From Candidatus Woesebacteria bacterium (lineage in GTDB: Bacteria; Patescibacteriota; Microgenomatia; UBA8517): a stretch of DNA of 64,000 nt. The position numbers were made by a program, and so were the translations under genes. How positions within the stretch are numbered: the stretch's first letter is position 1; each line of letters starts with the position of its first letter. The stretch is taken from NCBI GenBank assembly GCA_013426185.1, contig CP058602.1, forward strand, positions 74,231-138,230, given 5' to 3'. Of this stretch, positions 20,239 to 61,889 are shown one piece after another. The notes under the pieces were generated by a model. That model ran no database searches and was not told the DNA's origin. It saw only the letters and a program-made list of their open reading frames with translations.

Positions 20239-20523
20239 ATGAGTAAATACGAGTTGACTTTAATTCTTGATTCCAAAGCTACTTCTGCCAAGAAGAAAAA
20301 GGTGCAGGAAATGCTTGAGAAAATTCTATCTCAACTGAAAGGGAAAATAATCAAATCCAGTGATTGGGGAGTTAAGGAATTTGCTTATGATATAAATAAA
20401 AAGAGTTCTGGAGCTTATCTTTTTTTTGAGCTTGATCTTGATACCCGTTCAGCAAAATCTCTAAATGAAAAATTGCGTGTGGAAAATGATATTGTGCGTT
20501 ACCTTTTCGTTAAGTCTAGTTGA
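20239..20523 (+). CDS. rpsF: 30S ribosomal protein S6
   Basis: MSKYELTLIL N-term, S6-ssb-S18 synteny. Confidence 0.85.
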   Translation: MSKYELTLILDSKATSAKKKKVQEMLEKILSQLKGKIIKSSDWGVKEFAYDINKKSSGAYLFFELDLDTRSAKSLNEKLRVENDIVRYLFVKSS

Positions 20524-20553
20524 TTTTTTTTCTCAATTATTTAGAATTAGATT

Positions 20554-24839: not shown

Positions 24840-25281
24840 ATATTTAGGATAGCAAGACGGCTATCAGACATCGGCTATCGGTCGTCAGACGTCGGATATT
24901 GGGATTTAGTCGGAGTTGGTCGAAGTTGATCGAAAGATTGTATCTAGTATTTTGTATTATGTATTATGCAGGAAATACAAGTAGAAAGTAGTAAGTAGTA
25001 AGTAGAAAGCATTAATAAATAGTTAAAAGTTAAAAGAATTCGGATTTCAGCTATCAGCCGTCAGCTGTTGGAGTTCTTTGTTATTTTAATTCCTAAATCC
25101 TAAATCAAAATTCTATAATCTATAATCCAAAATCTATAATCTAATTAGAAAGTTTTGACTTTTGAGTTTTGAATTATATTTTTGACTTTTGATTTTTAAG
25201 TTTTGAGTTAATTTGTTAACTGTTAATTGTTATATTGTAATTTTATTCAATAATCTATAATCTAGAATCTATAATCTAACA
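24840..25281. repeat. mosaic intergenic repeat copy R5 (plus; near-complete octamer/heptamer/AT-array order)
   Basis: module sharing; inverted partner at 26188-26627. Confidence 0.9.
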
Positions 25282-26187: not shown

Positions 26188-26627
26188 AGAACAGAGATTA
26201 GAGAATAAAATTCTAAATGACAAATTAACTCAAAACTTAAAAATCAAAAGTCAAAAATATAATTCAAAACTCAAAAGTCAAAACTTTCTAATTAGATTAT
26301 AGATTTTGGATTATAGATTATAGAATTTTGATTTAGGATTTAGGAATTAAAATAACAAAGAACTCCAACAGCTGACGGCTGATAGCTAAAATCCGAATTC
26401 TTTTAACTTTTACCTCTTGCCTTTTACCTACTAGGTTAGAACATAGAACAGAGAACAAAGGGGAAAAGTTTTGAACTTAGTATTATGAATTAAGGGGATA
26501 ACGCATTTTCCTGCATAATACATAATACAAAATACTAAATACAATCTTCCGGCCGGCTCCGACTAGCTCCGACAACCAATATTCGATGTCCGATGTCTGA
26601 TATCCGATGTCTGACGTCAGCTGCTTT
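26188..26627. repeat. mosaic intergenic repeat copy R6 (minus; approximate reverse complement of R5)
   Basis: module sharing. Confidence 0.9.
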
Positions 26628-28483: not shown

Positions 28484-29800
28484 ATGGCTGACCAAAATTT
28501 AAAATTACCGCCTTTTTCAGAGGAAGCCGAAGCTTCTGTCTTGGGAGCTATTTTAATAGACAAATATGCAATGGTTGCTTTGGCTGAAATTTTGACCCCC
28601 GATGATTTTTACAGCCTTCGCCATAAATTGATTTTTGAAACTTGTATGGATTTATATGAGGAAAGAGTGCCTCTTGATATTTTGACGGTCAGTGACCGAC
28701 TGAAGAAAAAGAAAGCTCTAAAGAAAGTGGGAGGATCCTCATATCTTGCTGGTCTTGCTAACCAAGTGCCAACAGCAGCTCATGTTGAACATTATGCCAA
28801 GATAGTAAAGGATTTGGCGACAAAGAGGAATTTGATTTCAGCGGCAAGCAAAATTGTTGAGATGTCTTTTGACGAAGGAATGGCAGCAGATGAGCTTCTT
28901 GATAAAGCAGAATCCGAAGTCTTTTCTATTTCTGAAAAGCAACGTTTTAAGACTTTTACTCCTGTGCGTGAGGCGCTAGCTGAGAGCTTTGATCGCTTGG
29001 ATGAACTTCACAAGCAAGCTGAAGGGTTGCGGGGTGTGCCGACTGGTTTTAAGGATCTTGATTCAGCCTTGGCTGGTATGCAAAAGTCAAATCTTTTGAT
29101 TTTGGCAGCTCGCCCTGGAGTTGGTAAAACCACCCTTGCTTTAAATATTGCTCAGTCTTTAGCTGTAGAACACTCGCGTCCTGTGGCTATTTTTTCTCTT
29201 GAGATGAGCAAAGAGGAGTTGGTCGATAGGCTTCTTGTTGCTCAAGCTGATATTGATGCTTGGAAATTGAAAACAGGCAAGTTGTCAGAGGAAGATTTTA
29301 CTGCACTCTCAAACGCGATGGGTGTTTTGGCCGAAGCTCCTATTTATATTGATGATACTCCAGCCCTATCGATTACCGAAATGAGAACAAGAGCAAGGAG
29401 ACTTCAGGTTGATGTGGGTATTGACCTTTTGATTGTTGACTATCTACAGCTTGCAAGATCTCGTCATCTTGAAAATAGGGTACAGGAAGTTTCTGAAATT
29501 TCGCAAGGGTTGAAAAATCTGGCTCGTGAATTGAAGATCCCAGTTCTTGCTTTGTCTCAGCTCTCGCGTGCTGTTGAGCAAAGGGGAGAGAAAAGGCCTC
29601 AGCTTGCAGATTTGCGGGAGTCAGGATCAATTGAACAGGATGCCGATGTTGTTATGTTTTTATGGCGTGATGACGAGGAAAATCTTGAAAATGTCACACT
29701 TGATATAGCAAAACACAGAAACGGTCCACTGGCTTCTATAAAGCTCTATTTCAAAGGGGATAGAATTAGGTTTTATGGAAGAGAGACGAAGAGAGAGTAG
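28484..29800 (+). CDS. dnaB: Replicative DNA helicase DnaB
   Basis: Walker A ARPGVGKTT, DnaB N-term domain, 438 aa. Confidence 0.9.
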   Translation: MADQNLKLPPFSEEAEASVLGAILIDKYAMVALAEILTPDDFYSLRHKLIFETCMDLYEERVPLDILTVSDRLKKKKALKKVGGSSYLAGLANQVPTAAHVEHYAKIVKDLATKRNLISAASKIVEMSFDEGMAADELLDKAESEVFSISEKQRFKTFTPVREALAESFDRLDELHKQAEGLRGVPTGFKDLDSALAGMQKSNLLILAARPGVGKTTLALNIAQSLAVEHSRPVAIFSLEMSKEELVDRLLVAQADIDAWKLKTGKLSEEDFTALSNAMGVLAEAPIYIDDTPALSITEMRTRARRLQVDVGIDLLIVDYLQLARSRHLENRVQEVSEISQGLKNLARELKIPVLALSQLSRAVEQRGEKRPQLADLRESGSIEQDADVVMFLWRDDEENLENVTLDIAKHRNGPLASIKLYFKGDRIRFYGRETKRE

Positions 29801-30062
29801 ACGCCGGAAGACGGTATTTTAGTATCTAATATCTTGTATTATGTATTATGCAGGAAATACAAGTAGAAAGTAGAACGTAGTAAGTAGTAAGTAGTAAGTA
29901 GAAAGCAAAATTCTATAATCTATAATCCAAAATCTATAATCTAATTAGAAAGTTTTGACTTTTGAGTTTTGAGTTTTGAATTATATTTTTGACTTTTGAG
30001 TTTTAATTTTTGAGTTAATTTGTTAACTGTTAATTGTTATATTGTAATTTTATTCCGGGCCT
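29801..30062. repeat. mosaic intergenic repeat copy R7 (plus; heptamer and AT-array modules)
   Basis: module sharing. Confidence 0.9.
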
Positions 30063-31078: not shown

Positions 31079-31803
31079 GAAATAACCTCAAGCCTCAAGT
31101 AATTTACGAAGATGGTTTTTTGTTGGTTTTAGATAAGCCCTCTGGTTGGATTACGAATTCTGCTTTCACAGTAGGCAAAAACCCTGTTGTTCAGGACTTT
31201 ATTCTTAATAATTTTGATTTTGAGATAGCCAAAAATCGGGATTTAAGGTCTGGAATAGTACATCGTTTGGATAAAGATACTAGCGGTCTTCTCTTGGTAG
31301 CCAAAACAGAAAGAGCTTTTAGAGCTCTCCAGAGCCAATTTAAGAGGAGGATGGTAGAAAAAAGATACTTGGCTTTAGTTCATCAAAAATTAGAGCCTGA
31401 AGAAGGCGAGATAAAAGCTCCTGTGGGCCGTTTGCCTTGGAATCGGGAAAGATTTGGTGTTTTGCCGGGTGGAAGGGAAGCGTTTACAAAGTATAAAGTC
31501 TTGAAAAATTTTAAGCATCCTGAAAATGCTGATACTTTTTCCTTGGTGGAAGTAGCTCCAAAAACCGGCAGAACTCATCAGATAAGAATTCATTTTAAGT
31601 ATATTGGACATCCTTTGGTCTCAGATGCTTTTTATGCTGGCCGGAAAACCTCGCGCCGAGATCTAGTGTGGTGCCCAAGACTTTTTTTACATGCTTTCTT
31701 TTTGTCGTTTAATCATCCACAGACGAGTAAAAGTTTAGAAATTAAGATTGACTTACCATCTGATCTTAAAAAAACTCTGGATTTTTTGATTGAGTTAGAA
31801 TAA
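31048..31803 (+). CDS. RluA-family pseudouridine synthase
   Basis: catalytic HRLDKDTSGLLLVAK. Confidence 0.8.
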   Translation: MSKGKGKGKVGNNLKPQVIYEDGFLLVLDKPSGWITNSAFTVGKNPVVQDFILNNFDFEIAKNRDLRSGIVHRLDKDTSGLLLVAKTERAFRALQSQFKRRMVEKRYLALVHQKLEPEEGEIKAPVGRLPWNRERFGVLPGGREAFTKYKVLKNFKHPENADTFSLVEVAPKTGRTHQIRIHFKYIGHPLVSDAFYAGRKTSRRDLVWCPRLFLHAFFLSFNHPQTSKSLEIKIDLPSDLKKTLDFLIELE

Positions 31804-32280
31804 TTAACTCAAAACTTAAAAGTCAAAAGTCAAAAATTAGATTACAGAATACAGATTAGAGATTAGAGAATAAAATTCCAAATTCTAAACCCTGAACCAG
31901 AATAAATTCGATTCAGGGCAGGCAAATTCCAAATTACAAATTCCAATATACAAACAATATACAAGTAATAAACAAATTACAAACAGATTGTGAACACTGA
32001 ATTTAGTATTATGAATTATGTATTATGCAGAAAAATGCATTGTTCCCATAATACATAATACAAAATACAAAATACTAGCTTCCGGCCAGCTTCGACTAGC
32101 TCCGACTAAGTTCCGATAGCCGGCAACTGAAGTCTGACAGCTGATAGCTGATATCCGATGTCTGATATCCGATAGCCGATATCCGATAGCTGAAGTCTCT
32201 TGCCTTTTACCTATTATCATACTTGATACGTGATTGTTGATACTTGATACTTTTTAATAAATTATTAAAATACAACTTGT
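31804..32280. repeat. mosaic intergenic repeat copy R8 (minus; AT-array, hairpin array, palindrome, octamer array)
   Basis: module sharing. Confidence 0.9.
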
Positions 32281-33479: not shown

Positions 33480-33932
33480 TTTAACATATAACAGTTAACA
33501 AATTAACAAATTAACTCAAAAATTAAAACTCAAAAGTCAAAAATATAATTCAAAACTCAAAACTCAAAAGTCAAAACTTTATGATTAGATTATAGATTTT
33601 GGATTATAGATTATCGAATAAAATTCCAAATTCCAAGTTCCAAATTACAAGAACTAAATTCTAGATTCTAATATCTAAACTCTAAACAAATTCTAAATCA
33701 CAAAGAAAAAATCCAACTTTGAACTTTTAACTATTTATTAACGCTTTCTACTTACTACTTTCTACTTTCTACTTGTATTCCCTGCATAATACATAATACA
33801 AGATACTAAATACTATAAATACCAGCTTCCGGTCGGCTCTGACTAGCTCCGACTGAATTCCGATGTCCGATATCCGATGTCTGACGTCCGACATCCGACA
33901 TCCGACGTCCGAGGTCTGATGTCCGACGTCCG
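33480..33932. repeat. mosaic intergenic repeat copy R9 (minus; 14-unit octamer array at 3' end)
   Basis: module sharing. Confidence 0.9.
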
Positions 33933-38158: not shown

Positions 38159-38929
38159 ATGACTAAAAGAAAACGTTTTCTTGTCACATCTTTGCTTCTA
38201 ACTTTAGGTTTTGCAGGGGTACAATTCTTAGAACAAAGTTATAAATTTTGGGGTATTGGCGGCTTATCTTTTTTAACTCTAATCTTATTTTATTGGTCTT
38301 TAAGAGAGGGTTTGGCGTTTAATCTTACTCTTTTGAGCTTAGTTTTGCCTGTCTTTTTCACTTTAGGAGTCGGTTTTTTCTGGTTTCTTCTTCCTACAAA
38401 CATCTTTACACAGATTCCGATACTTATTTTTTATGGTTTCTTTATCTATATCCTTTGCCTGACTGAGAACATTTTCACAGTTGCCGCTATTAGAACGATC
38501 GCTCTTTTGAGAGCAGCAAGAGGAGTTGGTTTTGTTTTAACTCTTTTAGTCTCTTTTTTGCTTTTTAATACGATCGTGTCTCTGCGTCAGCCTTTTTGGA
38601 TTTCAAGCCCGCTTGTTTTTTTAGCGAGCTTTCTCATCTTTTTCCAAGGTTTGTGGCACGTTGATCTTTCAACAAGTTTTGATCGTGATTTATTTAACCT
38701 GTCTTTTATTTTTAGCCTTGTTTTGCTTGAAATTTCGGTTGCTCTTTTTTTCTGGCCTACTACGGTTGTGGTTGGTTCTTTGTTTTTGACAGTTTCGGTT
38801 TATGTCCTTTTGGGTTTAGGTCAAGCCAAAATTGAGGGCAGACTTTTTCCACAGACAATCAGGGAATACCTTACAGTGGGTATTTTGGTACTTCTTTCAA
38901 TGTTTTTTGCCACTCATTGGGGCGAATAG
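38159..38929 (+). CDS. hypothetical polytopic membrane protein
   Basis: 7-8 TM. Confidence 0.45.
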   Translation: MTKRKRFLVTSLLLTLGFAGVQFLEQSYKFWGIGGLSFLTLILFYWSLREGLAFNLTLLSLVLPVFFTLGVGFFWFLLPTNIFTQIPILIFYGFFIYILCLTENIFTVAAIRTIALLRAARGVGFVLTLLVSFLLFNTIVSLRQPFWISSPLVFLASFLIFFQGLWHVDLSTSFDRDLFNLSFIFSLVLLEISVALFFWPTTVVVGSLFLTVSVYVLLGLGQAKIEGRLFPQTIREYLTVGILVLLSMFFATHWGE

Positions 38930-39192
38930 AAATTTGGTTTCTTCTTAGTTATTGAAAACTAAAAAAAGACACACGGCGTGTAGGGGAGAGGGGAGTCGGG
39001 TATCCTATAATAATATCCTATAGTTTATGAAAACCGGTCATTTTTCACAGGATAATTTTTATTTTTTCACGAAAGAAAAATAGAATTTAACTTTAGAAAA
39101 AGAACCGAAAAGGAAAAGTGAAGCTAGTTGATATAGTTTGATAGAGTATTAAGCCTCTCTTTTTATCAAAAGCGGAGTGTTTTTGCTAGTCT

Positions 39193-39201
39193 TGTGGATA
39201 A
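39193..39201. promoter_or_regulatory. single consensus DnaA-box (TGTGGATAA) inside ORF-free AT-rich region
   Basis: seen in sequence; isolated, significance uncertain. Confidence 0.25.
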
Positions 39202-39362
39202 CTGTTTTCTGATTTATTGGAAAGTGTTCTTTTAGTTTTGTTTTCTTTATAGAGGGAATTTCTAAAAAACTCTGTCTTTTCCTTTTAATTTTATTAGTTT
39301 CAAAAAAACTGTTCTCTCTTTTTGGTGTGTTTGTTCCTTTTAGTAAAATTCTTTAAAATATA

Positions 39363-39390
39363 ATGTCGCACAAGATAGATTTTACGACAT
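39363..39390. promoter_or_regulatory. dif-like 28-bp site: 11-bp arm ATGTCGCACAA / 6-bp spacer / 11-bp arm TTTTACGACAT
   Basis: 11-6-11 architecture with inverted ATGTCG/CGACAT ends, ~670 bp upstream of xer gene; 10-mer TGTCGCACAA recurs at 40003. Confidence 0.35.
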
Positions 39391-39659
39391 AATGAAAGCT
39401 GTTGGAGTAGGAGGTGCTCCCCCGGGTTTTTATTTTTTTATCCCGGGATTTTTATTTTTGAAATAAATTATTTTTTTATATTTTCTCTTTTTAAATTGTC
39501 TTAGGATTTTTTTATTTCCAAATTAAACCCGAAAAAGCAATCGATATTATAAGAAAGTGTCAAAAGTGCTTTTAGACCGTAATCACGGACAAAAAGGAAC
39601 TTGTTTTAGACGACCAGTTAATCGTCTAAACTGAGAAACCCCCTTTAAAATCGATTTGG

Positions 39660-40000
39660 TGAAGCCAGGTTTGAAGCAAATAAAGAGCAAATTACAAATT
39701 AAAAACAATATACAAATTACAATATACAAATTCTAAATTCTAATATCTAAATCCTAAACCCTGAACCAGAATAAATTCGATTCAGGGCAAGCAAATTCCA
39801 AATCACAAACAAATTAGGAACACTGAACTTAGTTGAATTATGGAAATAATGCATTCACCTGCATAATACATAATACAAGATACTAGATACAATCTTTCGG
39901 CTAGCTTCGACTGAATTCCGATAGTCGAAAGCTGATGGCTGATGACCGACAACCGACATCTGAAGTCTGACAGCTGATAGCCGATGTCTGATGCTGATTA
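39660..40000. repeat. mosaic intergenic repeat copy R10 (minus)
   Basis: module sharing. Confidence 0.9.
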
Positions 40001-40016
40001 GTGTCGCACAATCTTA

Positions 40017-40045
40017 TTGACAAGTTTGTGGGGGAGTTCTACAAT
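40017..40045 (+). promoter_or_regulatory. near-consensus promoter TTGACA-17-TACAAT, -10 ends 11 nt before xer ATG
   Basis: seen in sequence. Confidence 0.45.
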
Positions 40046-40056
40046 GAATTTAGCTA

Positions 40057-41007
40057 ATGCAAGATAACCTGCCTAAAAACAGCGAACTGTCGTCCAAGAT
40101 TTCTGCTTTTTTGGAGTATCTTGAGGTTGAAAAGGGCTCCTCTTCCCTAACGGTAAGAAACTATAGACATTATTTAACTCGCTTTTTGTTATGGCTTGAG
40201 AAACAAGGTCTTAAGCCGACTCTTCAAAGTATTAAGCCTGAAGTAATTCATAATTATCGTCTTTATCTTTCGCGCTTGGTTGATAAAGACGGCAGGACTT
40301 TATCCCGCAAGACCCAAGGCTATCATTCAATAGCGCTTCGCAGTTTTCTAAAATGGTGTTTGAAAAATGATCTTGAAGTTATGTCTCCTGAAAAGATTGA
40401 ATTGCCAAAAATTGCCGAAAGACAGGTGAAGTTTTTAACAGGAAAGGAGGTTGATAGGCTTTTAAACGCACCATCTTTGTCAACTATAGTCGGCAAGCGT
40501 GACAAGGCTATTTTGGAAGTTCTTTTTTCAACTGGTTTGCGTGTTTCTGAGCTTGTTTCTTTGAATCGTGATAATGTGGATATTAAAAGGCGTGAGTTTG
40601 GAGTGGTTGGTAAAGGCGGCCGTGCAAGAGTGGTCTTTCTTTCAAGTCGTGCCGCTTCTTATCTTGATGAATATCTTAAAGCAAGAGAAGATAGTTTTAA
40701 GCCGCTTTTTATTAGGCACAGTAGGAATTTGGCGCCCAATTTGAAAGATAACCAGATGAGGCTAACAGCTCGTTCTGTTCAGCGAATCTTGAAAAAATAT
40801 TCTCGCAAGGTTAAGTTGCCTTTTGATGCGACACCCCATGTTTTGCGTCATTCTTTTGCGACCGATCTTTTAATGGCAGGAGCTGATATTAGATCAGTTC
40901 AGGAAATGCTGGGGCATAAAAATATCCAGACGACTCAAATTTATACTCATGTAACCCACCGTCATCTAAAGGAGATTTACGATACCTATCACGGCCGCTC
41001 TAGTTAG
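40057..41007 (+). CDS. XerC/XerD-like tyrosine site-specific recombinase
   Basis: core-binding N-domain, catalytic R...HxxR...Y (HVLRHSF...IYTHV). Confidence 0.85.
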
Positions 41008-43636
41008 TTTCTTCTTCTTTTTCGTCCTCAGTTATGTTTTTCTCAAGTGTGGCAACGCCTGCTACTGAGTCATCACTCTTGGCAAATCGCATTAGGATTA
41101 CTCCTTGGGTAGCTCGACCCATTTGGGGTATATTTTTAAGAGGCAACTTAATTATTTGTCCCATTGATGAAGTTATAACGACCTGGTCTATTTTTTCGGT
41201 TACGGTTGTCATCGCAGCAAGATTGCCTGTTTTTGGGGTAATTACGGCAGCTTTTACCCCCTTCCCTGCTCTTTTTTGAAGAGGGAAAAGGTCAATGGGT
41301 GTTCTTTTACCAATCCCTTTTTCAGAAACAGTTAGAATGTCTCTAAAGACTTTTCTTCTTTTATCTTTTATCTCAGGGCTTTTAGGATTGAAGACGTCCA
41401 TTCCTATAACTTCATCATCATCTGCAATCTTAATTCCTCTGACTCCTGATGTTGGCCTTCCCATTGCACGCAAGTCTTTTTCGCTAAACCTAATAGACAT
41501 ACCCTTTTTGGTAATAAGTAAGATATTGTCTTCTCCTGTAGTTTTGTCAACTCCGACAAGAGTGTCGTTTGGTTCAAGACGTATGGCAATGATGCCTGAG
41601 GCCCTCATATTCTTAAATGCCGATATTTCGGTCTTTTTTACAATTCCTTTTTTGGTTGCCATTACAAAGTATTTACCTATACCTTCCTTTACCGGAAGGA
41701 TTGACATAATTCTTTCGCCTTGTTCAATATTCAGGATGTTAACGATTGCCTGGCCTTTACTTATTCTGGAACTTTCGGGAATTTCCCAAACCTTGCTTCC
41801 ATAAACCTTGCCACGGTCGGTAAAGAATAGGAGATTGTCGTGCGTGGTGGCAGCAATGATGTGTTCAATTTCGTCCTCTTCTTTAACTGTCATTCCGCTT
41901 ATGCCTTTGCCACCTCGCCTTTGTGATTTAAAAGTGTTTCTTGGCACTCGCTTGATATAGCCTGTTTTGGTAATTGTTATTAGATTTTCTTCAAGAGGAA
42001 TTAGGTCTTCTTCTTTAAATTCGCCTATATCCTGCTTGAAAATGCGGGTTCTTCTTTCGTCTTGAAACTTTTCTTTCATCTCTTGAGTTTCTTTGGTGAT
42101 GATATCTATCACTTTTTGAGGGTCTTTGAGAATATTCGTCAACTCGTCAATTAATTTTTTAACTTCTTCATATTCTTTTTCTATCTTCTCTCGCTCAAGC
42201 GCGGCAAGGCGACGAAGTTGCATATCAAGAATCGCGTTTGCTTGAATTGCTGTTAAGCCAAACTTTTGCATCAAGTTATTTTTGGCGTCTTCTTGGGTTT
42301 TTGAGTTGCGTATTGTTTTTATAACTTCATCCAAATTATCAAGAGCAATCTTTAAGCCTTCTAAAATGTGGGCTCTCTTTTTGGCTGAAGTCAATTCAAA
42401 AATGGTTCTTCTTGTTACTACTTTTTGCCTGTGTTTAATATATTCGGTCAGAATTTGTTTCAAATTGACAAGATGTGGAGTGCCGTCAATTAAAGCTACG
42501 AAATTGGCAGGGAATGTTGTTTGCAATTTTGTGTGTTTGTAAAGATTATTAAGAACTGCTTTTGGTTTTGAGTCTCTTTTAAGATCAATTACTACTCGCA
42601 ATCCTTCTTTATCGGATTCATCTCTTAAGTTAGCGATACCGTTTATCTTTTTATCTTTGACAAGATCCGCAATATCTTTGACCAGTTGAGATTTATTAAC
42701 CTGGTATGGAATTTCGCTTATGACAATTTGAGGCTTACCCTTTTCCTCTTTAATTTCGGCGATGCCACGGACTACTATCTTGCCACGGCCTGTGGCATAG
42801 ACCTCTTTTAAGCTTTGGGCGTTGTAGATTGCGCCGCCTGTTGGAAAGTCAGGGCCGGGTATAATTTTGATAAGATCGTCAATAGTGATATCACTTTCAA
42901 AGCTAAGATTTTGAGGAGTTACTTCCTCCTCGGTTAATTTTTGAGCTTCACCTGACGCAACTAGATTTATTTTCTTGATAACAAATTCCGTTTCTTCTTT
43001 TTGTTTTTCCTGATCAAGAAGAACTACTCTTCCCTTCTTAATGGTTTCAACTATTGCGTCTGCTACTTCTTTTAAATTGTGAGGCGGAATTTTGGTGGCC
43101 ATACCCACCGCAATACCTTCTGAACCCATCAAAAGAAGATTTGGCAAGAGCGCTGGTAAGAATACAGGCTCTTTTAGGGTGGCGTCAAAATTGTCAACAA
43201 AGTCAACAGTATCTTTGTCGATATCAAAAAGCATATATGGAGCGTATTTTGAAAGACGAACCTCGGTATAACGCATAGCAGCAGGTGGATCGCCATCAAC
43301 TGAGCCAAAATTTCCCTGGCCTTGGACAAGCGGATAGCGCATTGAAAAATCTTGTGCTAGCCTTACTAAAGCATCGTAGACAGCCATATCGCCGTGAGGA
43401 TGGTATTTACCTAGTACTTCTCCGACCACTTTGGCTGATTTGCTGAATTGTTTTCCTGGCTCAAGGCCCATCAAATACATGGCGTAAAGAATTCTGCGGT
43501 GGACTGGTTTGAAGCCATCTCTGATATCAGGCAAGGCTCTTGCTACAATAACACTCATTGCATAATCAAGGTAGCTTTTGGAGAGTTCTGAGGTTATTTC
43601 AACTGTTTTGATTTTTCCAATATCCATTTTAGGCAA
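41000..43636 (-). CDS. gyrA: DNA gyrase subunit A
   Basis: AAMRYTE active-site region, 878 aa, C-term beta-pinwheel repeats. Confidence 0.9.
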
Positions 43637-43679
43637 AAAAATAAGGCTATGTGAGCCTATCCAATTTTATCTTGAAGCA

Positions 43680-44260
43680 AGTTATAAAGCAAGAGGAATT
43701 CGGATATCGGATGTCAGACGTCGGACATCGGCTATCGGCTATCAGACTTCAGTTGTCGGCTATCGGAATTCAGTCGAAGCTGGCCGGAAGCTAGTATTTA
43801 GTATTTTGTATTATGTATTATGCAGGAGGGACGAGTAGAAAGTAGAATGTAGGAAGTAGTAAGGGTTTATAATTTCTACTGTATCCGTGTGCTAGTACAC
43901 GGACCAAACCCTTTAGGGGGCCAGCGGCTATTCTCTACTCTCTATTCTCTATTCTGTTTGTGATTTGAAAAATTAGATAATTGTGATTTGTTTAGAATTT
44001 AGATATTAGAATTTAGAATTTGTATCTTGTAATTTGGAATTTGTAATTTTCTCTTTTTTCTTTGTTCTATGTTCTTTGTTCTAACCTAGTAGGTAAAAGG
44101 CAAGAGTTAAAAGGTAAAAGGAATTCGAGTAGAAAGTAGAATGTAGTAAGTAGAAAGCAAAATTCTATAATCTATAATCCAAAATCCATAATCTAATCAT
44201 AAAGTTTTAGCTTTTGAGTTTTAAATTTTTAGTTAATTTGTTAACTATTGTATACTTATT
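43680..44260. repeat. mosaic intergenic repeat copy R11 (plus) carrying a ~100-bp unique insert (43862-43960)
   Basis: module sharing. Confidence 0.9.
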
Positions 44261-45043
44261 TTGATGAAAAGTTGGCTTATTTTGTTTTTTGTATTGTTTT
44301 TATCTTTAGGATTTGCCTTTTACAAATACACAAATTTTCAGTCTCGCCGAAATCTTCCCAAAATTGAGGAAACAAAAACTTTGGGGGCGAAGGAAGAAAA
44401 TAAAGCCTCGCGATTGTTAGAAATCCCCAATGCCCGCTATTATTTTGATTATTTTGAAGCTGATCCAGATAAACTTTTCCTTTTTGGTAATTTTGAAAAG
44501 GGAGAAAAAGCAGAGGATATTAAATTAAGATTTAATTGCCAAAATTTAACAAATGGAGGCTTTTATGATGATAAGTTTAAACCAATTGGTCTTTTCATAA
44601 GCGAATATGAAGAACTTTCTCCTTGGCAGAAAAATCAGCTTTTTAATGGTGTTTTTTCAATCAATATGTTTGGAACGCCAAGGATTACTCGGGAGCGTCC
44701 GCGTGATTCTTTGAGACTTGCTCTTCAAAGCGGTCCTCTTGTTTTTGAAAACGGAGGTAAAGTTGTTTTTAAAAGTAGTTCAGATCATTCTCGCCGTGTA
44801 GTGGTAGCAGTGACTGGTGAAAATAAACCCTTATTTTTGGTCTTTTACTCTATAAATAATTTCATTGAAGGTCCCACTCTTGATGAATTACCTGTTTTAA
44901 TTGAAAAAATTAATGCGGATCTTAAGCTTGGTATTGCCGATGCTCTTAATTTGGATGGTGGAAATGCTAGCGCCTTTTATTCGGATAATTTGATGGTTTC
45001 TGAAACAACTAGGGTTGGAAGCTTCTTTTGCGTGAAGAAATAG
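44261..45043 (+). CDS. hypothetical exported protein, possible phosphodiester glycosidase (NAGPA/DUF2233-like) domain
   Basis: N-term TM/signal; C-term NLDGGNASAF. Confidence 0.4.
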   Translation: MMKSWLILFFVLFLSLGFAFYKYTNFQSRRNLPKIEETKTLGAKEENKASRLLEIPNARYYFDYFEADPDKLFLFGNFEKGEKAEDIKLRFNCQNLTNGGFYDDKFKPIGLFISEYEELSPWQKNQLFNGVFSINMFGTPRITRERPRDSLRLALQSGPLVFENGGKVVFKSSSDHSRRVVVAVTGENKPLFLVFYSINNFIEGPTLDELPVLIEKINADLKLGIADALNLDGGNASAFYSDNLMVSETTRVGSFFCVKK

Positions 45044-45684
45044 TGGCCACACCATGCAACTTATATGGGTCGCTGAATATGGTCGTAGCTGTGGGGGCCG
45101 GTATCAATAATCACGTATCACGAAGCAAGTATCAAGAATGGGTAAAAGGCAAGAGACTACAGCTATCGGATATCAGACATCAGATTTCGGCCATCAGAAG
45201 TTAGTAGAAAGTAGAACGTAGTAAGTAGAAAGCATTAATAAATAGTTAAAAGTTAAAAGTTAAAAGAATTTGGATTTCAGCTATCAGTTGTCTGCTGTCG
45301 GAGTTAATTGTTATCTTAATTCATAAATCTTAAATCCTAAATCTAGATTCTATAATCTGTTTGTAATTTGTTTATTACTTGTATATTGTTTGTATATTGG
45401 AATTTGTAATTTGGAATTTGCCTGCCCTGAATCGAATTTATTCTGGTTCAGGGTTTAGAATTTGGAATTTTATTCTCTAATCTCTAATCTGTATTCTGTA
45501 ATCTAATTTTTGACTTTTGACTTTTGAGTTTTAAGTTTTGAGTTTTGAGTTTTGAATTATATTTTTGACTTTTGAGTTTTAAGTTTTGAGTTTTGAGTTT
45601 TGAATTATATTTTTGACTTTTGAGTTTTAAGTTTTAAGTTAACTTCTAATTTCCCTTTTGTTCTCTGTTCTTTGTTCTATTTTA
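45044..45684. repeat. mosaic intergenic repeat copy R12 (plus; tandem-duplicated AT-array; last module overlaps hppA 3' end)
   Basis: module sharing. Confidence 0.9.
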
Positions 45685-47897
45685 TGGCTTCTTGATATTC
45701 CCCAAGCTAGAATGAGAAGCATAAGTAAGCCGAACACAGTCAATTCAGATTTATTTTGATATTGAACAATAACAGGAGCAGCAATTAAGCTTATAAGGTT
45801 GACGACTTTAATCATCGGATTTAAAGCAGGACCTGCAGTGTCCTTGAGAGGGTCTCCAAAAGTGTCACCTTCTACACTTGCTTTGTGTGATGGTGACCCC
45901 TTCCCCCCCAAGTTGCCATCCTCAATGTATTTTTTGGCATTGTCTAATGCTCCTCCAGCAACAGCCATAAACACAGCCATTAATTGTCCTACCAAGATTA
46001 CTCCTGCTAAAAATGCACCTAAAGCTTCGACCTGAAATACTGCTCCGACAAAAAGAGGTAAGGAGATAGAGATGGCAACTAATGTTAAAAGTTCCCTTTG
46101 CGCAGCGCTTGTAGTGATGGCGACTACCTTGTCATATTCCGGTGATACTTTGCCTTCAAGAACCCCTTTTCTTGCGAATTGTTTTCTTACTTCTTCTACA
46201 ACTTTGTTTGCTGCTTTAGCTACTGCCTTGATTGAATAAGCAGAGAAAATAAAAGGCAATGACCCACCCAACAGTAGTCCGATTATTGTGTCAAGTTTTG
46301 AGATTGTTATTTTCTCAATAACCGTTAACCCCAGTCTTGCCTGGACAACGCCCACATCAGTCACATAAGAGAAAAATAGACTGGTGGCCGCTATTACTGC
46401 GGAAGCAATTGCCACTTGTTTAGTAATTGCTTTAGTGGTGTTGCCAGCGGCATCAAGATCAGCCATTATTTTCCATGCCTTTTTACCAACACCCGACATC
46501 TCACCGATCCCATTGGCATTATCTGCAATTGGTCCAAACGAGTCCATGGCAACATTATTACCAGTTAGAGAAAGCATTCCTATTCCGACCATGGCTACTC
46601 CATAGAGCATGTATATGGGAGCATGGCCCGCAAAGGATAATAGACTTATACCTATTGCGATGGCAATGGCTATAATGCTAAAAACGCTTGCCTCCATGCC
46701 AACTACCAATCCTGAAAGAATAGTGGTTGCTGTTCCTGATTTTGTGGAATCAGCTATTTCTCTAACAGGCTTGTAAGCTGATGAAGTAAAGTATGAAGTT
46801 AATGGATTAAATAAATAAGCTAGTAACACACCAGCTGTATTGAGCAGAGCCAGCCTCCATTCACCAGCGTAGTATAAAGCGAGAGCGAAAGAAAATGCGA
46901 TGACAAGAACGCTTGATAAAGCATAAGATCGAAACATTGCTTCTTCTGGGTTTTCTGTACGAATTAGTTTTGATTTCGCTTTGCCCCAGACAGGGACTAA
47001 CAAAGTTCCTACGATTGATGCTATAACACCTGATGCTCTTACAGCTAGTGGGTATATTATCCAGAAGCTATTTCCAGTTAGTTGAACCAGAACGAGACCT
47101 AAAATTAGTGAGGATACCATTGTCACTTCGTAAGATTCAAACACATCGGCGGCCATCCCAGCACAGTCTCCCACATTGTCGCCTACAAGGTCGGCTACTA
47201 CCCCTGCGTTTCTAGGATCGTCCTCGGGGAGGTTTTCTTCGATCTTTCCTACAAGATCGGCACCGACATCAGCGGCTTTCGTGTAAATACCTCCACCTAT
47301 TCTCATAAAAAGGGCAACTAAAGTCCCTCCAAGACCAAAACCCAGTAAAGCGTCTGGAGATGCTTTACCAAAAATGATAAATATCACAATTCCTCCCAGC
47401 AACCCCAATCCACTAGCGAGCATGCCCGTAAAGGTGCCTGCTTTGTGTGCGATGGCTAGTGCTTCGTTTGCCCTACCCAATTTAGCTTGGTTGGCGACTC
47501 TGACGTTACCTTCTATTGCAACTCTCATGCCCAGTTGGCCCACTAGAGTTGAGAAAGTGGCGCCGATTATGAAAGCTATCGTTCTGCCAATGGCTACAAC
47601 AGGCACCGCCTTGTCCCCAAAAATTTCAATAGATTCTTTGGATGGAGGCACTATATAAACACTTAGAAACAAAACTAAGGTCAATGCTAGTACCGAGATG
47701 ATAATTGTTTTTAGCTGTTTTCTTAAGTAACCTTCAGATCCTTCTTTGATAGCGGTCCACACTTTTACCATCTTGGCATTTCCTTTGGGAGAAGAAATAA
47801 CATTTTTCCAGAGCCATAGAGCGTACATGAGACTTACTAGAGAAGTTCCTAATACAAAGACAATTATGTTCTTTTCAATTAGAGATAGCTCGCTCAT
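45639..47897 (-). CDS. hppA: K+-insensitive/H+-translocating membrane pyrophosphatase
   Basis: GGIYTKAADVGADLVGK, DNVGDCAGMAADVFESY motifs, ~16 TM, 752 aa. Confidence 0.9.
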   Translation of the reverse strand: MSELSLIEKNIIVFVLGTSLVSLMYALWLWKNVISSPKGNAKMVKVWTAIKEGSEGYLRKQLKTIIISVLALTLVLFLSVYIVPPSKESIEIFGDKAVPVVAIGRTIAFIIGATFSTLVGQLGMRVAIEGNVRVANQAKLGRANEALAIAHKAGTFTGMLASGLGLLGGIVIFIIFGKASPDALLGFGLGGTLVALFMRIGGGIYTKAADVGADLVGKIEENLPEDDPRNAGVVADLVGDNVGDCAGMAADVFESYEVTMVSSLILGLVLVQLTGNSFWIIYPLAVRASGVIASIVGTLLVPVWGKAKSKLIRTENPEEAMFRSYALSSVLVIAFSFALALYYAGEWRLALLNTAGVLLAYLFNPLTSYFTSSAYKPVREIADSTKSGTATTILSGLVVGMEASVFSIIAIAIAIGISLLSFAGHAPIYMLYGVAMVGIGMLSLTGNNVAMDSFGPIADNANGIGEMSGVGKKAWKIMADLDAAGNTTKAITKQVAIASAVIAATSLFFSYVTDVGVVQARLGLTVIEKITISKLDTIIGLLLGGSLPFIFSAYSIKAVAKAANKVVEEVRKQFARKGVLEGKVSPEYDKVVAITTSAAQRELLTLVAISISLPLFVGAVFQVEALGAFLAGVILVGQLMAVFMAVAGGALDNAKKYIEDGNLGGKGSPSHKASVEGDTFGDPLKDTAGPALNPMIKVVNLISLIAAPVIVQYQNKSELTVFGLLMLLILAWGISRSHKIEQRTENKREIRS

Positions 47898-48457
47898 TTT
47901 TCAAAAAAAAACAAACTCGTCAACTGCGAGTCTTGAGTTATTCTAGGAATATGTGTTTTTTTTGTCAAGAAGGAAAATTAGTCGGAGCTGGCCGAAAGAC
48001 AATATTGTATCTAGTATCTTGTATTATGTATTATGCAGGAAATACAAGTAGAAAGTAGAAAGTAGTAAGTAGAAAGTAGAAAGCAAAATTAATAAATAGT
48101 TAAAAGTTCAAAGTTAAAAGTTGGAATTTTTTGTTTGTAATTTGGAATTTGTGATTTGTAATTTTCCCTTTGTTCTTTGTTCTAACCTAGTAGGTAAAAG
48201 GCAAGAGGTAAAAGGTAAAAGGAATTCGAGTAGAAATTAGAACGTAGTAAGTAGAAAGCAAAATTCTATAATCTATAATCTATAATCCAAAATCCATAAT
48301 CTAATCATAAAAAGTTTTAACTTTTGAGTTTTAAGTTTTTAGTTAATTTGTTAATTTGTTAACTGTTAATTGTTATATTGTAATTTGTATATTGTTTGTA
48401 TATTGGAATTTGGAACTTGGAATTTGTAATTTTATTCTTTGTTCTTTGTTCTAATTT
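47898..48457. repeat. mosaic intergenic repeat copy R13 (plus)
   Basis: module sharing. Confidence 0.9.
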
Positions 48458-50416
<1,959 letters not shown>

Positions 50417-50461
50417 CTAATTATAGCTTTAAATTGATCTTAAGTTAAGAGCAGGTTAATC

Positions 50462-51088
50462 CTAAAGGTTGATAACCATTCTTGTCAACTGGAGTTTGAC
50501 ATTTGCGTTTGATTTTATGGCCAAAAGAGCTTGATTTGCGTGTATAAGACAACGCGATATTTTAGTATCCCTTTCTTTTTGGTAAATGGATTTTTCGCAA
50601 AATTGAATTAATCCTTCTAGAAATTCTAACGCTTCTTCCCTCTTTTTAATTTTATCAACATAAAGAAGTTGCAGACCCTTTTTTTTGTTAAGGAAAGCTA
50701 AATATTCAGGATTAATATCTTTATTTTCTTCTCTTTTTGAAGTAAGTTTTATTATCTGGCATCTTGAGATAACAGTGGGTATAACACTTTTTATATTTCT
50801 TGTTGTTAGAATAAAAATTATATTTGGCCCTGGTTCTTCAATATTTTTTAGAATAGCGTTTAAGGCTGGGAGAGAGGCTTTTTCTACTTCTTTAATTATT
50901 ACTGCCAGTTTTTGCTGATGTGAGAGTTTGGTTAATTCTTTTAATTCTCGAGCATCTTCAATTGTCTTAAGTTTGAATTCAGAGACAATTGCTTGGTTTT
51001 TTTTTACAATCTCATTTATTTTTTCCTCAATTCTTTTTTTATCAGTAGAGGCAATGATAAACGAGTTCATAAGTGGAATATACAACAT
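50462..51088 (-). CDS. holB: DNA polymerase III delta'-like subunit (short)
   Basis: ALNAILKNIEEP and SRCQ motifs, no Walker A. Confidence 0.55.
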   Translation of the reverse strand: MLYIPLMNSFIIASTDKKRIEEKINEIVKKNQAIVSEFKLKTIEDARELKELTKLSHQQKLAVIIKEVEKASLPALNAILKNIEEPGPNIIFILTTRNIKSVIPTVISRCQIIKLTSKREENKDINPEYLAFLNKKKGLQLLYVDKIKKREEALEFLEGLIQFCEKSIYQKERDTKISRCLIHANQALLAIKSNANVKLQLTRMVINL

Positions 51089-51450
51089 ATAAATTACAAA
51101 TTACAAATCACAAATTACAATATACAGATTCTAAATTCTAATATCTAAATTCTAAATCCTGAACCAGAATAAATTCGGTTCAGGGCAGGCAAATTACAAA
51201 TTACAAACAAAAAATTCCAACTTTTAACTTTTAACTTTGAACTTTTAACTATTTATTAATTTTGCTTTCTACTTACTACGTTCTACTTTCTACTTATATT
51301 TCCTGCATAATACATAATACAAGATACTAGATACAATCTTTCGGTCGGCTTCGACTGAATTCCGATAGCCGACAACTGAAGTCTCACAGCTGATAGCCGA
51401 TCTCCGATATCTGACATCCGATCTCCGAATTCCTCTTGCCACTTTTGGAA
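51089..51450. repeat. mosaic intergenic repeat copy R14 (minus)
   Basis: module sharing. Confidence 0.9.
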
Positions 51451-51471
51451 AAATGGGTTAAATTATTATTG

Positions 51472-53235
51472 ATGACAACTTCTGCTCAAATATCAACTAA
51501 AGCTAATCAGATTAATAATCAGGATGCTACTCTATCGCTTACTTTGGCTGATATCTTAGTGAAGCAAGGGTCAATAACCGAGGATAAAGCTAAGGAGATC
51601 AAGTTAGCTGAAATTCAGACTGGCAAAAACCAAGAGGCAATTGTTAAGTCTTTAGGAATAGTTTCGCCTGCAGATCTAGCTAAAGCGAAAGCTGCCTTGT
51701 TTAATATTCCTTTTATAGATTTGGCTAATGCTCCTGTTTCTCCTGAAGCTATGGCAATTTTGCCCAAGGAAATTGCTGAAAGATTTAAGGTCTTTCCTCT
51801 TTCTATTGATAAAGTCTCCAAGACATTGGATTTAGCGATGGCTGATCCTCTTGATCTTTTTGCTATTGAATTTGTTGAGCAGAAAACTAATCTTCGGGTT
51901 AGACTATATGCTTGTGATGAAGCTAAACTTGAGGAATTTATCACTGTTCGTTATGCCACTTCTCTTTCAAAAGAAGTAACGGAAGCTTTGAAAGATGTAG
52001 CTCCTGAAGTCAAGGAGGGTGCAAATGGAATAGCAGGAACTAAAGTCGGTTTTATTAAGGACGAAAAGATAGCAGAGATTGTGACCCAAATTCTTGATTT
52101 TGCTGTTCGAGCTAGAGCTTCTGATATTCATATAGAACCTCAAGAAAAATCAACTAGGGTTCGTTACAGAATTGATGGAATACTACAGGAGAAATTGACG
52201 ATACCTAAGGCTTTGCACAAAGCTCTTGTCTCAAGGATTAAGATCCTTTCTGGATTGAAGATAGACGAGAAAAGGGTGCCTCAGGATGGTAGGTTTAATT
52301 TTATGGGGGCTTCTGAAGATGTTGATTTGCGTATCTCTACTTTACCTACAGCTTGGGGAGAAAAGGTGGTTATGAGGCTTCTTAAAAAAACTGGTGGGGT
52401 ACCAGAACTACCAGAACTTGGTTTAAGGGGTCTTGCTCTTAAAAATTTGGAAACGGCAATACTTAGGCCTCATGGCATTATTATTATTTGTGGTCCTACT
52501 GGTTCTGGTAAAACTACCACTCTTTACTCTATTATTTCAAAAATTAATACCCCTAAAGTTAATATTGTTACTTTGGAGGACCCGATTGAGTATAAGATTC
52601 CTGGAGTTAATCAGGTGCAGGTTAATCCAGCTGCTGGTTTGACTTTTGCTTCTGGTTTGAGAGCTTTTTTGCGGCAAGACCCGAATATTATTCTAGTTGG
52701 TGAGATTCGTGACCGCGAGACTGCTGATTTGGCTATTCAAGCGTCTTTAACAGGTCATCTTGTCTTTTCTACCTTGCATACTAATGATGCGTCAGGAGCT
52801 TTTCCTCGTCTTTTGGATATGGGTGCTGAGCCTTATCTTTTGGCTTCTTCTATGACGGCTATTTTAGCCCAGAGGGTGGTCAGGAAAATTCACGAGGATT
52901 GTAAAGAAGAATATACCCCTGACCCAAAGGTGATTGAGGATATGAAAAATGTTTTAGGCCCTCTTTGGAATAAAGGTGAAGGAGAAGTTAAACTTTATCA
53001 TGGTACTGGTGATCCTGAATGTGGAGGGTCAGGGTACTATGGTAGAATTGGTATTTTTGAGGTAATGCCTGTTTCTGAAAAAATCAGTCGACTTATTTTG
53101 GAGCATAAGTCTGCTAGCGATATTGAGAAGGTGGCGCGTGAAGAAGGGATGATAACCATGAAGCAGGATGGCTATCTGAAGGTTCTTGAGGGAATTACTA
53201 CCATAGAAGAAGTCTTAAGGGTAGCCCAAGACTAA
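51472..53235 (+). CDS. pilB: Type IV pilus assembly ATPase PilB/GspE
   Basis: T2SSE_N domain, Walker A GPTGSGKTTT, C4 Cys; listed ORF begins with TTG at 51436 inside the repeat, ATG at 51472 preferred. Confidence 0.85.
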   Translation: MTTSAQISTKANQINNQDATLSLTLADILVKQGSITEDKAKEIKLAEIQTGKNQEAIVKSLGIVSPADLAKAKAALFNIPFIDLANAPVSPEAMAILPKEIAERFKVFPLSIDKVSKTLDLAMADPLDLFAIEFVEQKTNLRVRLYACDEAKLEEFITVRYATSLSKEVTEALKDVAPEVKEGANGIAGTKVGFIKDEKIAEIVTQILDFAVRARASDIHIEPQEKSTRVRYRIDGILQEKLTIPKALHKALVSRIKILSGLKIDEKRVPQDGRFNFMGASEDVDLRISTLPTAWGEKVVMRLLKKTGGVPELPELGLRGLALKNLETAILRPHGIIIICGPTGSGKTTTLYSIISKINTPKVNIVTLEDPIEYKIPGVNQVQVNPAAGLTFASGLRAFLRQDPNIILVGEIRDRETADLAIQASLTGHLVFSTLHTNDASGAFPRLLDMGAEPYLLASSMTAILAQRVVRKIHEDCKEEYTPDPKVIEDMKNVLGPLWNKGEGEVKLYHGTGDPECGGSGYYGRIGIFEVMPVSEKISRLILEHKSASDIEKVAREEGMITMKQDGYLKVLEGITTIEEVLRVAQD

Positions 53236-53282
53236 TTGTTTTTTTCTTTTGTATGGTGTAATCTGAATTAAATTACTGCCCT

Positions 53283-54347
53283 ATGCTTGATGTAATACAA
53301 CTTTTAAATCTAGCGGTTGAGAAGAAAGCTTCTGATTTGCATCTGATTGTAGGTGTTCCTCCTTACTTGCGTATCGATGGCCAGCTTTTGCCTGTGAATG
53401 AAGAACCTGTTGTTACCAGTGAGTTTATTGAAAAAGTAGCTACTACCGTTTTGAAACCTGAGCAATATGAGCGCTTTAAAGTTAATCGTGATCTTGATTT
53501 CTCTTTTTTTCTTTCTGATGTCGCTCGTTTTAGGGTTAATGCCTATTTTCAAAAAGGCAATTATTCTTTTTCTTTTCATGTTATTCCTTCTCAGATTTTG
53601 ACAGTAGAAGAATTAGGATTGCCTGAAGTTCTTCATTCTTTCACTCATCTAAGACAAGGATTTGTTTTGATAACCGGCCCTACTGGCCATGGAAAGTCTA
53701 CAACTTTAGCATCAATGCTCAACGAGATTAATAAAAATAGGAGCGAGCATATAGTGACTATTGAAGATCCAATTGAGTTTGTTATTCCACCAGTCAAATC
53801 TATCATCTCCCAAAGAGAAGTTGGTTTTGATACTCATTCTTGGCAGATAGCTCTTCGCTCTGTTTTAAGGGAAGATCCCGATGTGGTGATGATTGGTGAG
53901 ATGCGCGACTTGGAAACCATTTCTGCTGCTTTGACTGTGGCAGAAACAGGACATTTAGTTTTTGCTACTCTTCATACCAATTCAGCTTCTCAAACTATTG
54001 ATAGAATAGTTGATGTCTTTCCTGAAAATCAGCAAGGGCAAGTTAGGCTTCAACTCTCAAATACTCTAGAAGGAGTTTTCTCCATGCGTTTGGTTCCTGC
54101 TATAGGAGGAGGAAGAGTTGTTGCCTATGAACTTATGCTTGGAACACCAGCGGTTAGATCTGTAGTCCGTGATGGTAAAACTCATCTTCTAGATAATATC
54201 ATCCAAACTTCGCAAGAATTTGGCATGTCAACTTTAGAGATGTCTTTAGCTGAATTGGTAAAAACAGGAAAGATTTCTTTTGAGGTAGCTCAATCTTATT
54301 CCCTTAGAGTTGAAGAATTATCTCGTCTTGTTAAAGGTGAAAGTTAA
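53283..54347 (+). CDS. pilT: Twitching-motility retraction ATPase PilT
   Basis: Walker A GPTGHGKSTT, 354 aa. Confidence 0.85.
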   Translation: MLDVIQLLNLAVEKKASDLHLIVGVPPYLRIDGQLLPVNEEPVVTSEFIEKVATTVLKPEQYERFKVNRDLDFSFFLSDVARFRVNAYFQKGNYSFSFHVIPSQILTVEELGLPEVLHSFTHLRQGFVLITGPTGHGKSTTLASMLNEINKNRSEHIVTIEDPIEFVIPPVKSIISQREVGFDTHSWQIALRSVLREDPDVVMIGEMRDLETISAALTVAETGHLVFATLHTNSASQTIDRIVDVFPENQQGQVRLQLSNTLEGVFSMRLVPAIGGGRVVAYELMLGTPAVRSVVRDGKTHLLDNIIQTSQEFGMSTLEMSLAELVKTGKISFEVAQSYSLRVEELSRLVKGES

Positions 54348-54353
54348 AAAGCA

Positions 54354-55565: not shown

Positions 55566-55617
55566 TTTAGAATTGGGTCTTGACAAAATTTTTCTAATTG
55601 TTTAAATTGAAACTAGT

Positions 55618-56178: not shown

Positions 56179-56191
56179 TCTGTTATTTTCT

Positions 56192-61887: not shown

Positions 61888-61889
61888 TT

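Follow-up and report, generated by a model that had tools for sequence, protein, structure and literature searches.

The non-coding DNA between a DUF5656 membrane-protein gene and xer, which encodes a tyrosine recombinase, in the 64-kb stretch of Candidatus Woesebacteria bacterium contig CP058602.1 that we analysed (hereafter the window) appears to be a chromosomal cis-acting element of the Microgenomates. Judging from its sequence and from that of its relatives, we consider it probable, with reasonable though far from complete confidence, that its dif-type Xer core forms a module with the adjacent recombinase gene and is exploited by mobile elements. The whole gap of 1,127 bp (38930–40056) is non-coding. 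A preliminary description of this DNA had singled out the part at 38930–39660 as an AT-rich region free of open reading frames (ORFs) and holding a 28-bp element of dif architecture, and both observations stand: the ORF list of the window has no ORF of 60 aa or more there, the GC content of the region is 30% versus 37% for the 64-kb window, and the element is conserved and linked to xer in related genomes.

The core is the 28-mer ATGTCGCACAAGATAGATTTTACGACAT, in which two 11-bp arms flank a 6-bp centre (11-6-11 geometry) and match each other as an inverted repeat at 9 of 11 positions. It occurs once in the window, even when three mismatches are allowed. A scan of one genome per species yielded 80 orthologous loci with Xer proteins 56–72% identical, or 81 loci with the window. 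The pattern GTCG(C/T)ACAA-N6-TTTT(G/A)CGAC is present in exactly one copy in 72 of these 81 loci, all with the same geometry, and it always precedes xer, on the strand of that gene, at a distance of 326–3765 bp (median 929 bp; no more than 1300 bp in 63 of the 72). Most of the loci without the 28-mer are on contigs that end early upstream of xer (L015, L029, L043, L047 and L077), and two others (L042 and L045) have a diverged copy next to an inserted homing-endonuclease gene. The earlier concern that the 28-mer might be a mere repeat is not borne out, since there is one copy in each ~13-kb orthologous locus and since the site is also found on mobile elements that plausibly exploit Xer.

In the relatives, the consensus of the core is ATGTCGCACAA-TAATAC-TTTTGCGACGT, and the asymmetry of the arms, CACAAT on the left versus CAAAAG on the right, is conserved. 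The first base of the centre, position 39374, is polymorphic among strains, being G in the window and in L202 and T in L201; T is the consensus elsewhere. Variants at position 5 of the two arms pair independently (C..G in 33 loci, C..A in 21, T..A in 10 and T..G in 8; chi-square p = 0.22). Because the arms vary independently and the common C..A combination would break a stem, they are better seen as two protein half-sites on DNA than as an RNA stem. Sites of the dif type are used by bacteria for unlinking chromosome dimers and are hijacked by phages. Aligned with the dif sites of Escherichia coli and Bacillus subtilis, the 28-mer has 15–18 identities out of 28, compared with a mean of 8.6 for shuffled sequences, and the probability of reaching at least 15 of 28 by shuffling is ∼0.005. 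Archaeal dif sites resemble bacterial dif at a similar level, 14–18 of 28 (PMC2958812).

The neighbouring Xer protein was compared with the NCBIfam models, where it scores 254 bits with XerD and 252 bits with XerC, each under the cutoff, 226.6 bits with the archaeal XerA model (XerA_Arch), over the cutoff of 220, and 135 bits with the XerS model, whose cutoff is 267. Its best solved relatives are Pyrococcus abyssi XerA (4a8e) and E. coli XerD (1a0p), with equal scores, and XerH is distant. The Xer-related recombinases of the candidate phyla have been placed in a 'Cand' subgroup of their own (PMC8138268).

A second connection between the core and xer is an isolated copy of the left arm that abuts the xer promoter, the best promoter match in the region. 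The preliminary description had noted that the 10-mer TGTCGCACAA of the core recurs just before this promoter; the recurrence is real, and its position, 40002–40011, is one base off the one given there. It lies 5 nt ahead of the TTGACA hexamer. In the window alone, the TGTCGCACAA pair is within chance expectation (three or more near-matches in 28 of 100 shuffles) and so is the single DnaA box described below, the DnaA boxes of the window showing no clustering; the significance of both features comes from their conservation in related genomes. Of the 81 loci, 66 have a half-site of the left-arm type in the 250 bp ahead of xer, and in 51 of these 66 a TTGAC or TTGAT comes next, no more than 13 nt away. 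The half-site remains with xer where inserted genes part the conserved unit from the recombinase gene. The insert between the two varies by genome (a 245-aa gene, hydrolase genes or repeats), and the genes found there in other genomes show no phage or plasmid signatures. Autoregulation of Xer through this promoter half-site is probably the simplest reading of the arrangement. XerS is known to bind the left arm of its site first (PMC2965235).

The core pattern is also found in at least 120 IMG/VR viral contigs, as opposed to 6 for a composition-matched scramble. Among the matches listed, each contig has one copy of the core and none has the chromosomal flanks; in 97 of the 120, no open frame of at least 100 aa covers the core, and just one contig has a detectable Xer-like gene nearby. 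Examples include a tailed phage with a terminase and an inovirus-like 4.7-kb contig with a Zot-like gene, a type of gene typical of filamentous phages. A set of 120 core-bearing metagenome stretches contains ∼27 chromosomal loci of Microgenomates. In contig L250 (JGI1221J13441_10002443), three cores lie exactly 2,398 bp apart in a tandem assembly; the repeated unit is probably a small circular replicon, and the contig encodes a 169-aa protein with a weak match to excisionase-type helix-turn-helix domains. The site-bearing mobile forms found were all free and single-site. By analogy with the dif mimics on integrative mobile elements exploiting Xer (IMEX) and on plasmids, whose pattern they follow, these elements plausibly borrow the Xer of the host (PMC5357621, PMC9765430). 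The surroundings of the site differ between the two kinds of replicon: in the viral loci (L081–L200), the genes around the site tend to point away from it and most centres read TATATC or TATACA, whereas on chromosomes the genes converge on the site, the centre is usually TAATAC and the unit is approached by genes from both sides in most loci.

The chromosomal core is embedded in a discrete conserved unit of ∼700 bp (Table 1), which nhmmer aligned end-to-end in more than 20 loci and partially in most others. Where other genomes have large insertions, these either leave the unit intact or lie in the stretch that separates its DnaA box from the core. The order of its elements is GGGGAG-N17-TATAAT, two TTTTCAC, CGAA..CCGAA, two GATATAGTT, the DnaA box, a variable spacer and the 28-mer in the 5' part, and a GAGGGTAGTG-like block, AT-rich sequence, TTCCGAA..CCCGAA, CTCCCC, AGACGA-N8-TCGTCT and TTAAAATCGATTTGGTGA in the 3' part; the CTCCCC block of the relatives is missing in the window. 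In block A, CCTATAAT corresponds to part of a CCTATAATTATAGG palindrome in the relatives. The perfect DnaA box that had been noticed before is indeed present: an exact box lies 119–303 bp upstream of the 28-mer, in the same orientation, in 49 of 70 loci and a box with one mismatch in 12 more, against a background of 12 exact boxes per 796 kb. Block L is found 256–330 bp past the 28-mer in 33 of 34 loci, the outlier being at 228 bp. As a working inference, the flanks of the core may hold sites for accessory proteins that shape the reaction or permit it to proceed. In about half of the aligned units, (A/T)T(G/A)CGACG follows right after the second TTTTCAC (e.g. L031, 4566–4580); this motif, absent in the window, resembles the outer right arm and may be a further half-site.

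Table 1. Coordinates of the conserved unit, the xer gene and neighbouring features in the window.
Feature	Position	Strand	Remarks
DUF5656 membrane-protein gene	38159–38929	+	Left neighbour of the non-coding gap
Discrete conserved non-coding unit, ∼700 bp	38966–39680	+	Collinear with orthologous loci, fixed orientation to xer
Block A: G-rich box GGGGAGAGGGGAG, 17-nt spacer, CCTATAAT	38983–39011	+	Conserved columns
Block B: two TTTTCAC, 22 bp apart	39042–39070	+	Invariant columns
Block C: AGAAAAAGAACCGAA	39092–39109	+	CGAA..CCGAA motif; conserved alignment columns
Block D: TTGATATAGTTTGATAGAGTATTAAGCCTC	39128–39157	+	In relatives, direct repeat GATATAGTT x2
Block E: perfect DnaA box TGTGGATAA	39193–39201	+	Sole perfect box in 64 kb
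28-bp core	39363–39390	+	11-6-11
Left arm ATGTCGCACAA	39363–39373	+	dif-type site
Central region GATAGA	39374–39379	+	Consensus of relatives TAATAC; strain L201 TATAGA
Right arm TTTTACGACAT	39380–39390	+	dif-type site
Block G: GGAGTAGGAGGTGC	39404–39417	+	GAGGGTAGTGTAG-like in relatives; GAGGGTAGTG-like block
AT-rich tract	39420–39520	.	78% A+T; holds CCCGGG hairpin, then T-runs
CCCGGG copies	39421–39426 and 39442–39447		Pair as hairpin CCCGGG-N15-CCCGGG (39421–39447)
Block I: TTTCCAAATTAAACCCGAA	39515–39533	+	TTCCGAA-N-CCCGAA in relatives
Block K: inverted repeat TTTAGACGA-N8-TCGTCTAAA	39605–39630	.	9-bp stem; conserved core AGACGA/TCGTCT
Block L: CTTTAAAATCGATTTGGTGAAGCC	39643–39666	+	Right end of the unit; TTAAAATCGATTTGGTGA in the ordered block list
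Isolated left-arm half-site TGTCGCACAAT	40002–40012	+	Abuts xer promoter
xer promoter TTGACA-17-TACAAT	40017–40045	+	11 of 12 consensus positions
xer, tyrosine recombinase, 316 aa	40057–41007	+	Pfam Phage_integrase and SAM_1

In the two loci with a diverged core, a LAGLIDADG homing-endonuclease ORF (Pfam PF00961; L042, 4302–4805, and L045, 4967–5455; 57% identical to each other) stands where other loci have the variable spacer from the DnaA box to the 28-mer. The right junction of this ORF falls exactly between ..TG and TCGCACAAT of the left arm, with changes to the outer arm bases. A single-motif LAGLIDADG endonuclease would suit a pseudo-palindromic target such as the 28-bp site. No intron was detected around the endonuclease gene in either locus.

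Taken as a dif-type module, the locus might work as follows. The adjacent xer would encode the recombinase, which is as far from XerC as from XerD, resembles XerA according to NCBIfam and probably acts alone. Two Xer monomers would occupy the near-identical arms, two such sites would synapse, and exchange at the 6-bp centre would resolve chromosome or replicon dimers, while the lone left arm against the −35 box would probably let Xer control its own transcription. The ordered motifs on either side of the core, over ∼400 bp on its left and ∼300 bp on its right (DnaA box, paired TTTTCAC, GATATAGTT, CCGAA, AT-rich sequence and inverted repeats), would bind accessory proteins. Phages, inovirus-like elements and the 2.4-kb circular element, which have the core without a recombinase, would borrow the host enzyme for integration or multimer resolution.

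The position of the site with respect to replication was deduced from strand composition. Plus-strand GC skew is positive throughout the window. Third-codon-position (GC3) skew was calculated by gene orientation, which parts replication effects from coding effects; in plus-strand sense, it amounts to +0.33 for plus-strand genes and +0.27 for minus-strand genes to the left of the site, and to +0.22 and +0.21, respectively, to the right of it. The 60 k-mers with the strongest skew include 47 whose direction is the same on both sides of the site. Plus-strand GC3 skew is likewise positive on both flanks in orthologues from ∼56–80 genomes (mean +0.25 for the DUF5656 gene and +0.13 for gyrA, which is on the opposite strand and has positive values in 50 of 56 genomes). 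The same sign on both flanks indicates that replication passes the locus in the direction of xer in all genomes tested, and a polarity without a switch means that the site is neither a terminus nor an origin. The preliminary description had entertained both placements and proposed GC skew as the check. The terminus is contradicted by GC3 skew that is positive on both sides in either gene orientation and by skewed k-mers that do not flip; the origin, by the single DnaA box, the lack of a skew switch and the absence of dnaA and dnaN from the 64-kb window. Core-bearing metagenome contigs without a nearby xer are heterogeneous, with no consistent skew switch, and genes often converge on the site there. 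The genes for gyrA, an H+-pyrophosphatase, gyrB and a DNA polymerase III delta-prime-like protein (41000–51088, minus strand) are oriented head-on to the inferred replication, and for gyrA this orientation holds in 50 of 56 related genomes.

Several of the known Xer systems share features with this locus. Like archaeal XerA/dif, it combines a single Xer-family recombinase with a 28-bp, 11-6-11 site whose arms are nearly symmetric; archaeal sites are not necessarily opposite the origin, some archaeal genomes have a xerA-dif module, and the flanks are conserved in Thermococcales (PMC2958812, PMC5357621). A xer-dif module with dif away from 180 degrees thus has an archaeal precedent (PMC5357621). 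Furthermore, the window protein passes the XerA model, and P. abyssi XerA is its best solved relative. On the other hand, the host is a bacterium of the candidate phyla radiation (CPR), the protein is equally close to XerD, there is a half-site at the recombinase promoter, the flanks comprise ∼700 bp with a DnaA box as opposed to ∼23 bp of AT-rich DNA in Thermococcales, and archaeal sites coincide with a skew inversion of short polar words whereas the window site does not. The XerS/difSL system of streptococci and lactococci and the XerH/difH system of Helicobacter and Campylobacter also use one recombinase genetically linked to its site, and one of their asymmetric arms is preferred, but their sites are longer or atypical (31 bp in difSL), terminal and FtsK-dependent. 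XerC/XerD-dif of E. coli and B. subtilis has the 11-6-11 geometry and the inner motif CGCAyAA-N6-TTwTG in common with our site; unlike it, it employs two paralogous recombinases and a distinct XerD arm, TTATGTTAAAT, is not linked to xer, has no conserved flanks and lies within ∼1–3% of the skew shift point (PMC3025954).

Mobile elements offer further parallels. The Legionellales have XerL/dif, a lineage-specific system with a single recombinase; its site is mimicked by LME-1, a mobile element that lacks a recombinase of its own, and in Coxiella the site is immediately beside xerL on a plasmid (PMC9765430); however, the chromosomal sites of Legionella and Coxiella are always near the GC-skew maximum, and XerL forms a divergent clade whereas the window Xer is typical. 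In the plasmid sites cer and psi, as here, the Xer core is flanked by accessory DNA, which gives resolution selectivity without FtsK (PMC5357621), but that DNA comprises ∼180–250 bp on one side and works with PepA and ArgR or ArcA, whereas here ∼700 bp on both sides of a chromosomal site includes a DnaA box. IMEX elements (CTX phage, VGJ, TLC and the gonococcal island) include small filamentous-phage-like and other elements with a dif-like attP and no integrase; for the Microgenomates site, in contrast, only free single-site forms were found. In the searchable literature we found no account of a dif site from CPR/Patescibacteria. If the proposed assignment is correct, the 28-mer is a candidate dif core for Microgenomates that could help to relate site-bearing phages to their hosts and to flag Xer-dependent mobile elements in metagenomes. 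It would also be a bacterial dif-type site away from a polarity switch, which bears on the universality of FtsK-guided terminus positioning, and the core, half-site, DnaA box and paired motifs would make a compact, experimentally tractable set.

Several points weigh against the assignment of the region to a dif-type module. Classical dif sites lie within ∼0–1.4% of the genome length from the GC-skew shift, with outliers at less than 3% (PMC3025954), whereas the skew does not shift over the 39 kb on the left of our site and the 25 kb on its right, in a genome of ∼1 Mb; a terminus may lie beyond these limits. The site was not found in plasmids and phages of cultured organisms. Lastly, the ∼700-bp flanks far exceed what a known chromosomal dif needs, so the core may be part of something else. 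Of all parts of the locus, these flanks have the best prospects of yielding something new.

Following the last point, one can envisage, tentatively and as a possible rather than a probable explanation, that the whole ∼700-bp unit is an undescribed chromosomal 'recombination organiser' in which the core, placed between two arrays of accessory sites including one for DnaA, would assemble a self-contained nucleoprotein complex. Such a complex would provide resolution selectivity or coupling to the cell cycle through DnaA without FtsK and without a terminus, as a chromosomal counterpart of cer/psi or of an attP intasome, conserved over a branch of the CPR superphylum and parasitised by phages and a homing endonuclease.

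It seems unlikely that the 28-mer and the half-site serve a dedicated transcription factor, rather than Xer, as operators, with the palindrome controlling xer and genes near it, and that the unit is a complex regulatory region where no recombination takes place. The half-site at the −35 box of xer, the conservation of the palindrome and the many motifs around it would be compatible with this explanation. However, a lone half-site is unusual for a dimeric factor, and neither the 11-6-11 geometry nor the dif-like inner positions would be accounted for. A host operator also does not explain why the full core is retained between genes in recombinase-less phages, in the inovirus-like contig and in the 2.4-kb circular element, and the unit is separated from xer by up to 3.7 kb.

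Quite unlikely, too, is the possibility that the unit encodes a long non-coding RNA (ncRNA) of ∼650 nt with weak structure, whose transcription would run rightward from TATAAT (39006) to blocks K and L, with the 28-mer inside the transcript. Its discrete bounds and fixed orientation, the conserved TATAAT, the two terminal inverted repeats, often followed by T-runs, the G-U-compatible pairs that favour the plus strand in block L and the homing-endonuclease ORF inserted in two genomes would all suit a transcribed gene; homing-endonuclease ORFs occur in CPR rRNA genes. However, there is no −35 box upstream of TATAAT and no sign of an intron around the endonuclease, and the preliminary suggestion of a structured ncRNA found no backing in Rfam matches, thermodynamic signal or covariation, although the power of these tests is limited. 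Searches of the window and 11 orthologous loci against Rfam gave no matches at gathering or E-value thresholds. Folding z-scores for the 5' half, on both strands of the window and L031, ranged from −1.3 to −0.07, with no excess stability, and RNAalifold recovered only local palindromes across the 3' domain and no consensus structure at the 3' end. The hairpin that had been reported near 39603–39630 does exist, as the 9-bp stem of block K, and its pairing is accounted for by conservation of the arms, not by covariation; for hairpins K and L, 79.6% of the counted pairs were paired versus 78.6% after shuffling, and the covariation score was reached by 76 of 500 shuffles. The twin CCCGGG sites and the AT-rich tract of the preliminary description are likewise present. 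In strain L202, the CCCGGG hairpin reads CCCAGG/CCTGGG, a compensatory double change, but it is not kept in other genera and is lineage-specific. A terminator after the core is not conserved (mean z of −0.07 over the 72 loci), the CCCGGG hairpin of the window being the only one that stands out.

We find it very doubtful that the unit is a DnaA-dependent replication element combining a DnaA box, iteron-like direct repeats, an AT-rich tract for unwinding and a resolution site, be it oriC, a secondary or a domesticated plasmid-type origin, or a locus for DnaA control like datA/DARS. The positionally conserved DnaA box, the paired motifs, the 78% A+T tract after the core and the vicinity of gyrA and gyrB are the points in its favour, and block-wise conservation of this kind resembles that seen in origin alignments. 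Yet there is one box and no cluster, its spacing from the core is variable (119–303 bp), and no similar plasmid or phage origin was found; the unchanged skew and k-mer polarity and the lack of dnaA and dnaN in the 64 kb, described above, speak against it as well.

Finally, the earlier proposal of an IMEX junction remnant, in which the full site and the half-site are a functionless scar of an ancient Xer-mediated integration, is highly improbable: two direct copies of the left arm do bracket ∼610 bp that include hypervariable repeats, and site-bearing mobile elements do exist, but the second copy is one arm only, the first ∼290 bp past the full site are length-constrained conserved core sequence rather than foreign DNA, in 51 loci the half-site keeps a fixed place at the −35 box of xer, and the content between the unit and xer is variable and nowhere phage-like.

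The sequence between the unit and the xer promoter is a 7-nt-periodic repeat block (∼39680–39995) bracketed, as had been described, by the two TGTCGCACAA 10-mers. Between strains whose flanking DNA is ∼99% identical this block is rearranged or scrambled; the unit itself is ∼99% identical. Composite intergenic repeats made of modules with 7-nt periodicity (TCCGATA-, GTAGAAA-, TTTTGAG-, ATAATCT- and TATTATG-like) occupy nearly every other gap in the window, examples being 6150–6560, 13450–13760, 20000–20550, 24850–25280, 26190–26625, 29800–30060, 31800–32280, 33500–33930, 43640–44260, 45050–45640, 47900–48460, 51090–51440 and 60970–61380.

Downstream, xer is convergent with gyrA (41000–43636, minus strand), and the two frames overlap tail-to-tail by 8 bp (41000–41007). 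Just past gyrA, strain variants with identical Xer have an IS1595-family transposase (L203, 4618–5010, and L204, 4168–4962) at a position where the window has a NAGPA-domain gene. A type IV pilus/competence-like cluster at 51436–63913 contains two T2SSE ATPases, T2SSF, a prepilin peptidase and approximately nine genes with a common N-terminal pilin-like methylation motif. In the related genome L017, an S-adenosylmethionine (SAM) riboswitch (Rfam RF00162, 50 bits) is located downstream of xer, at 7984–8082.

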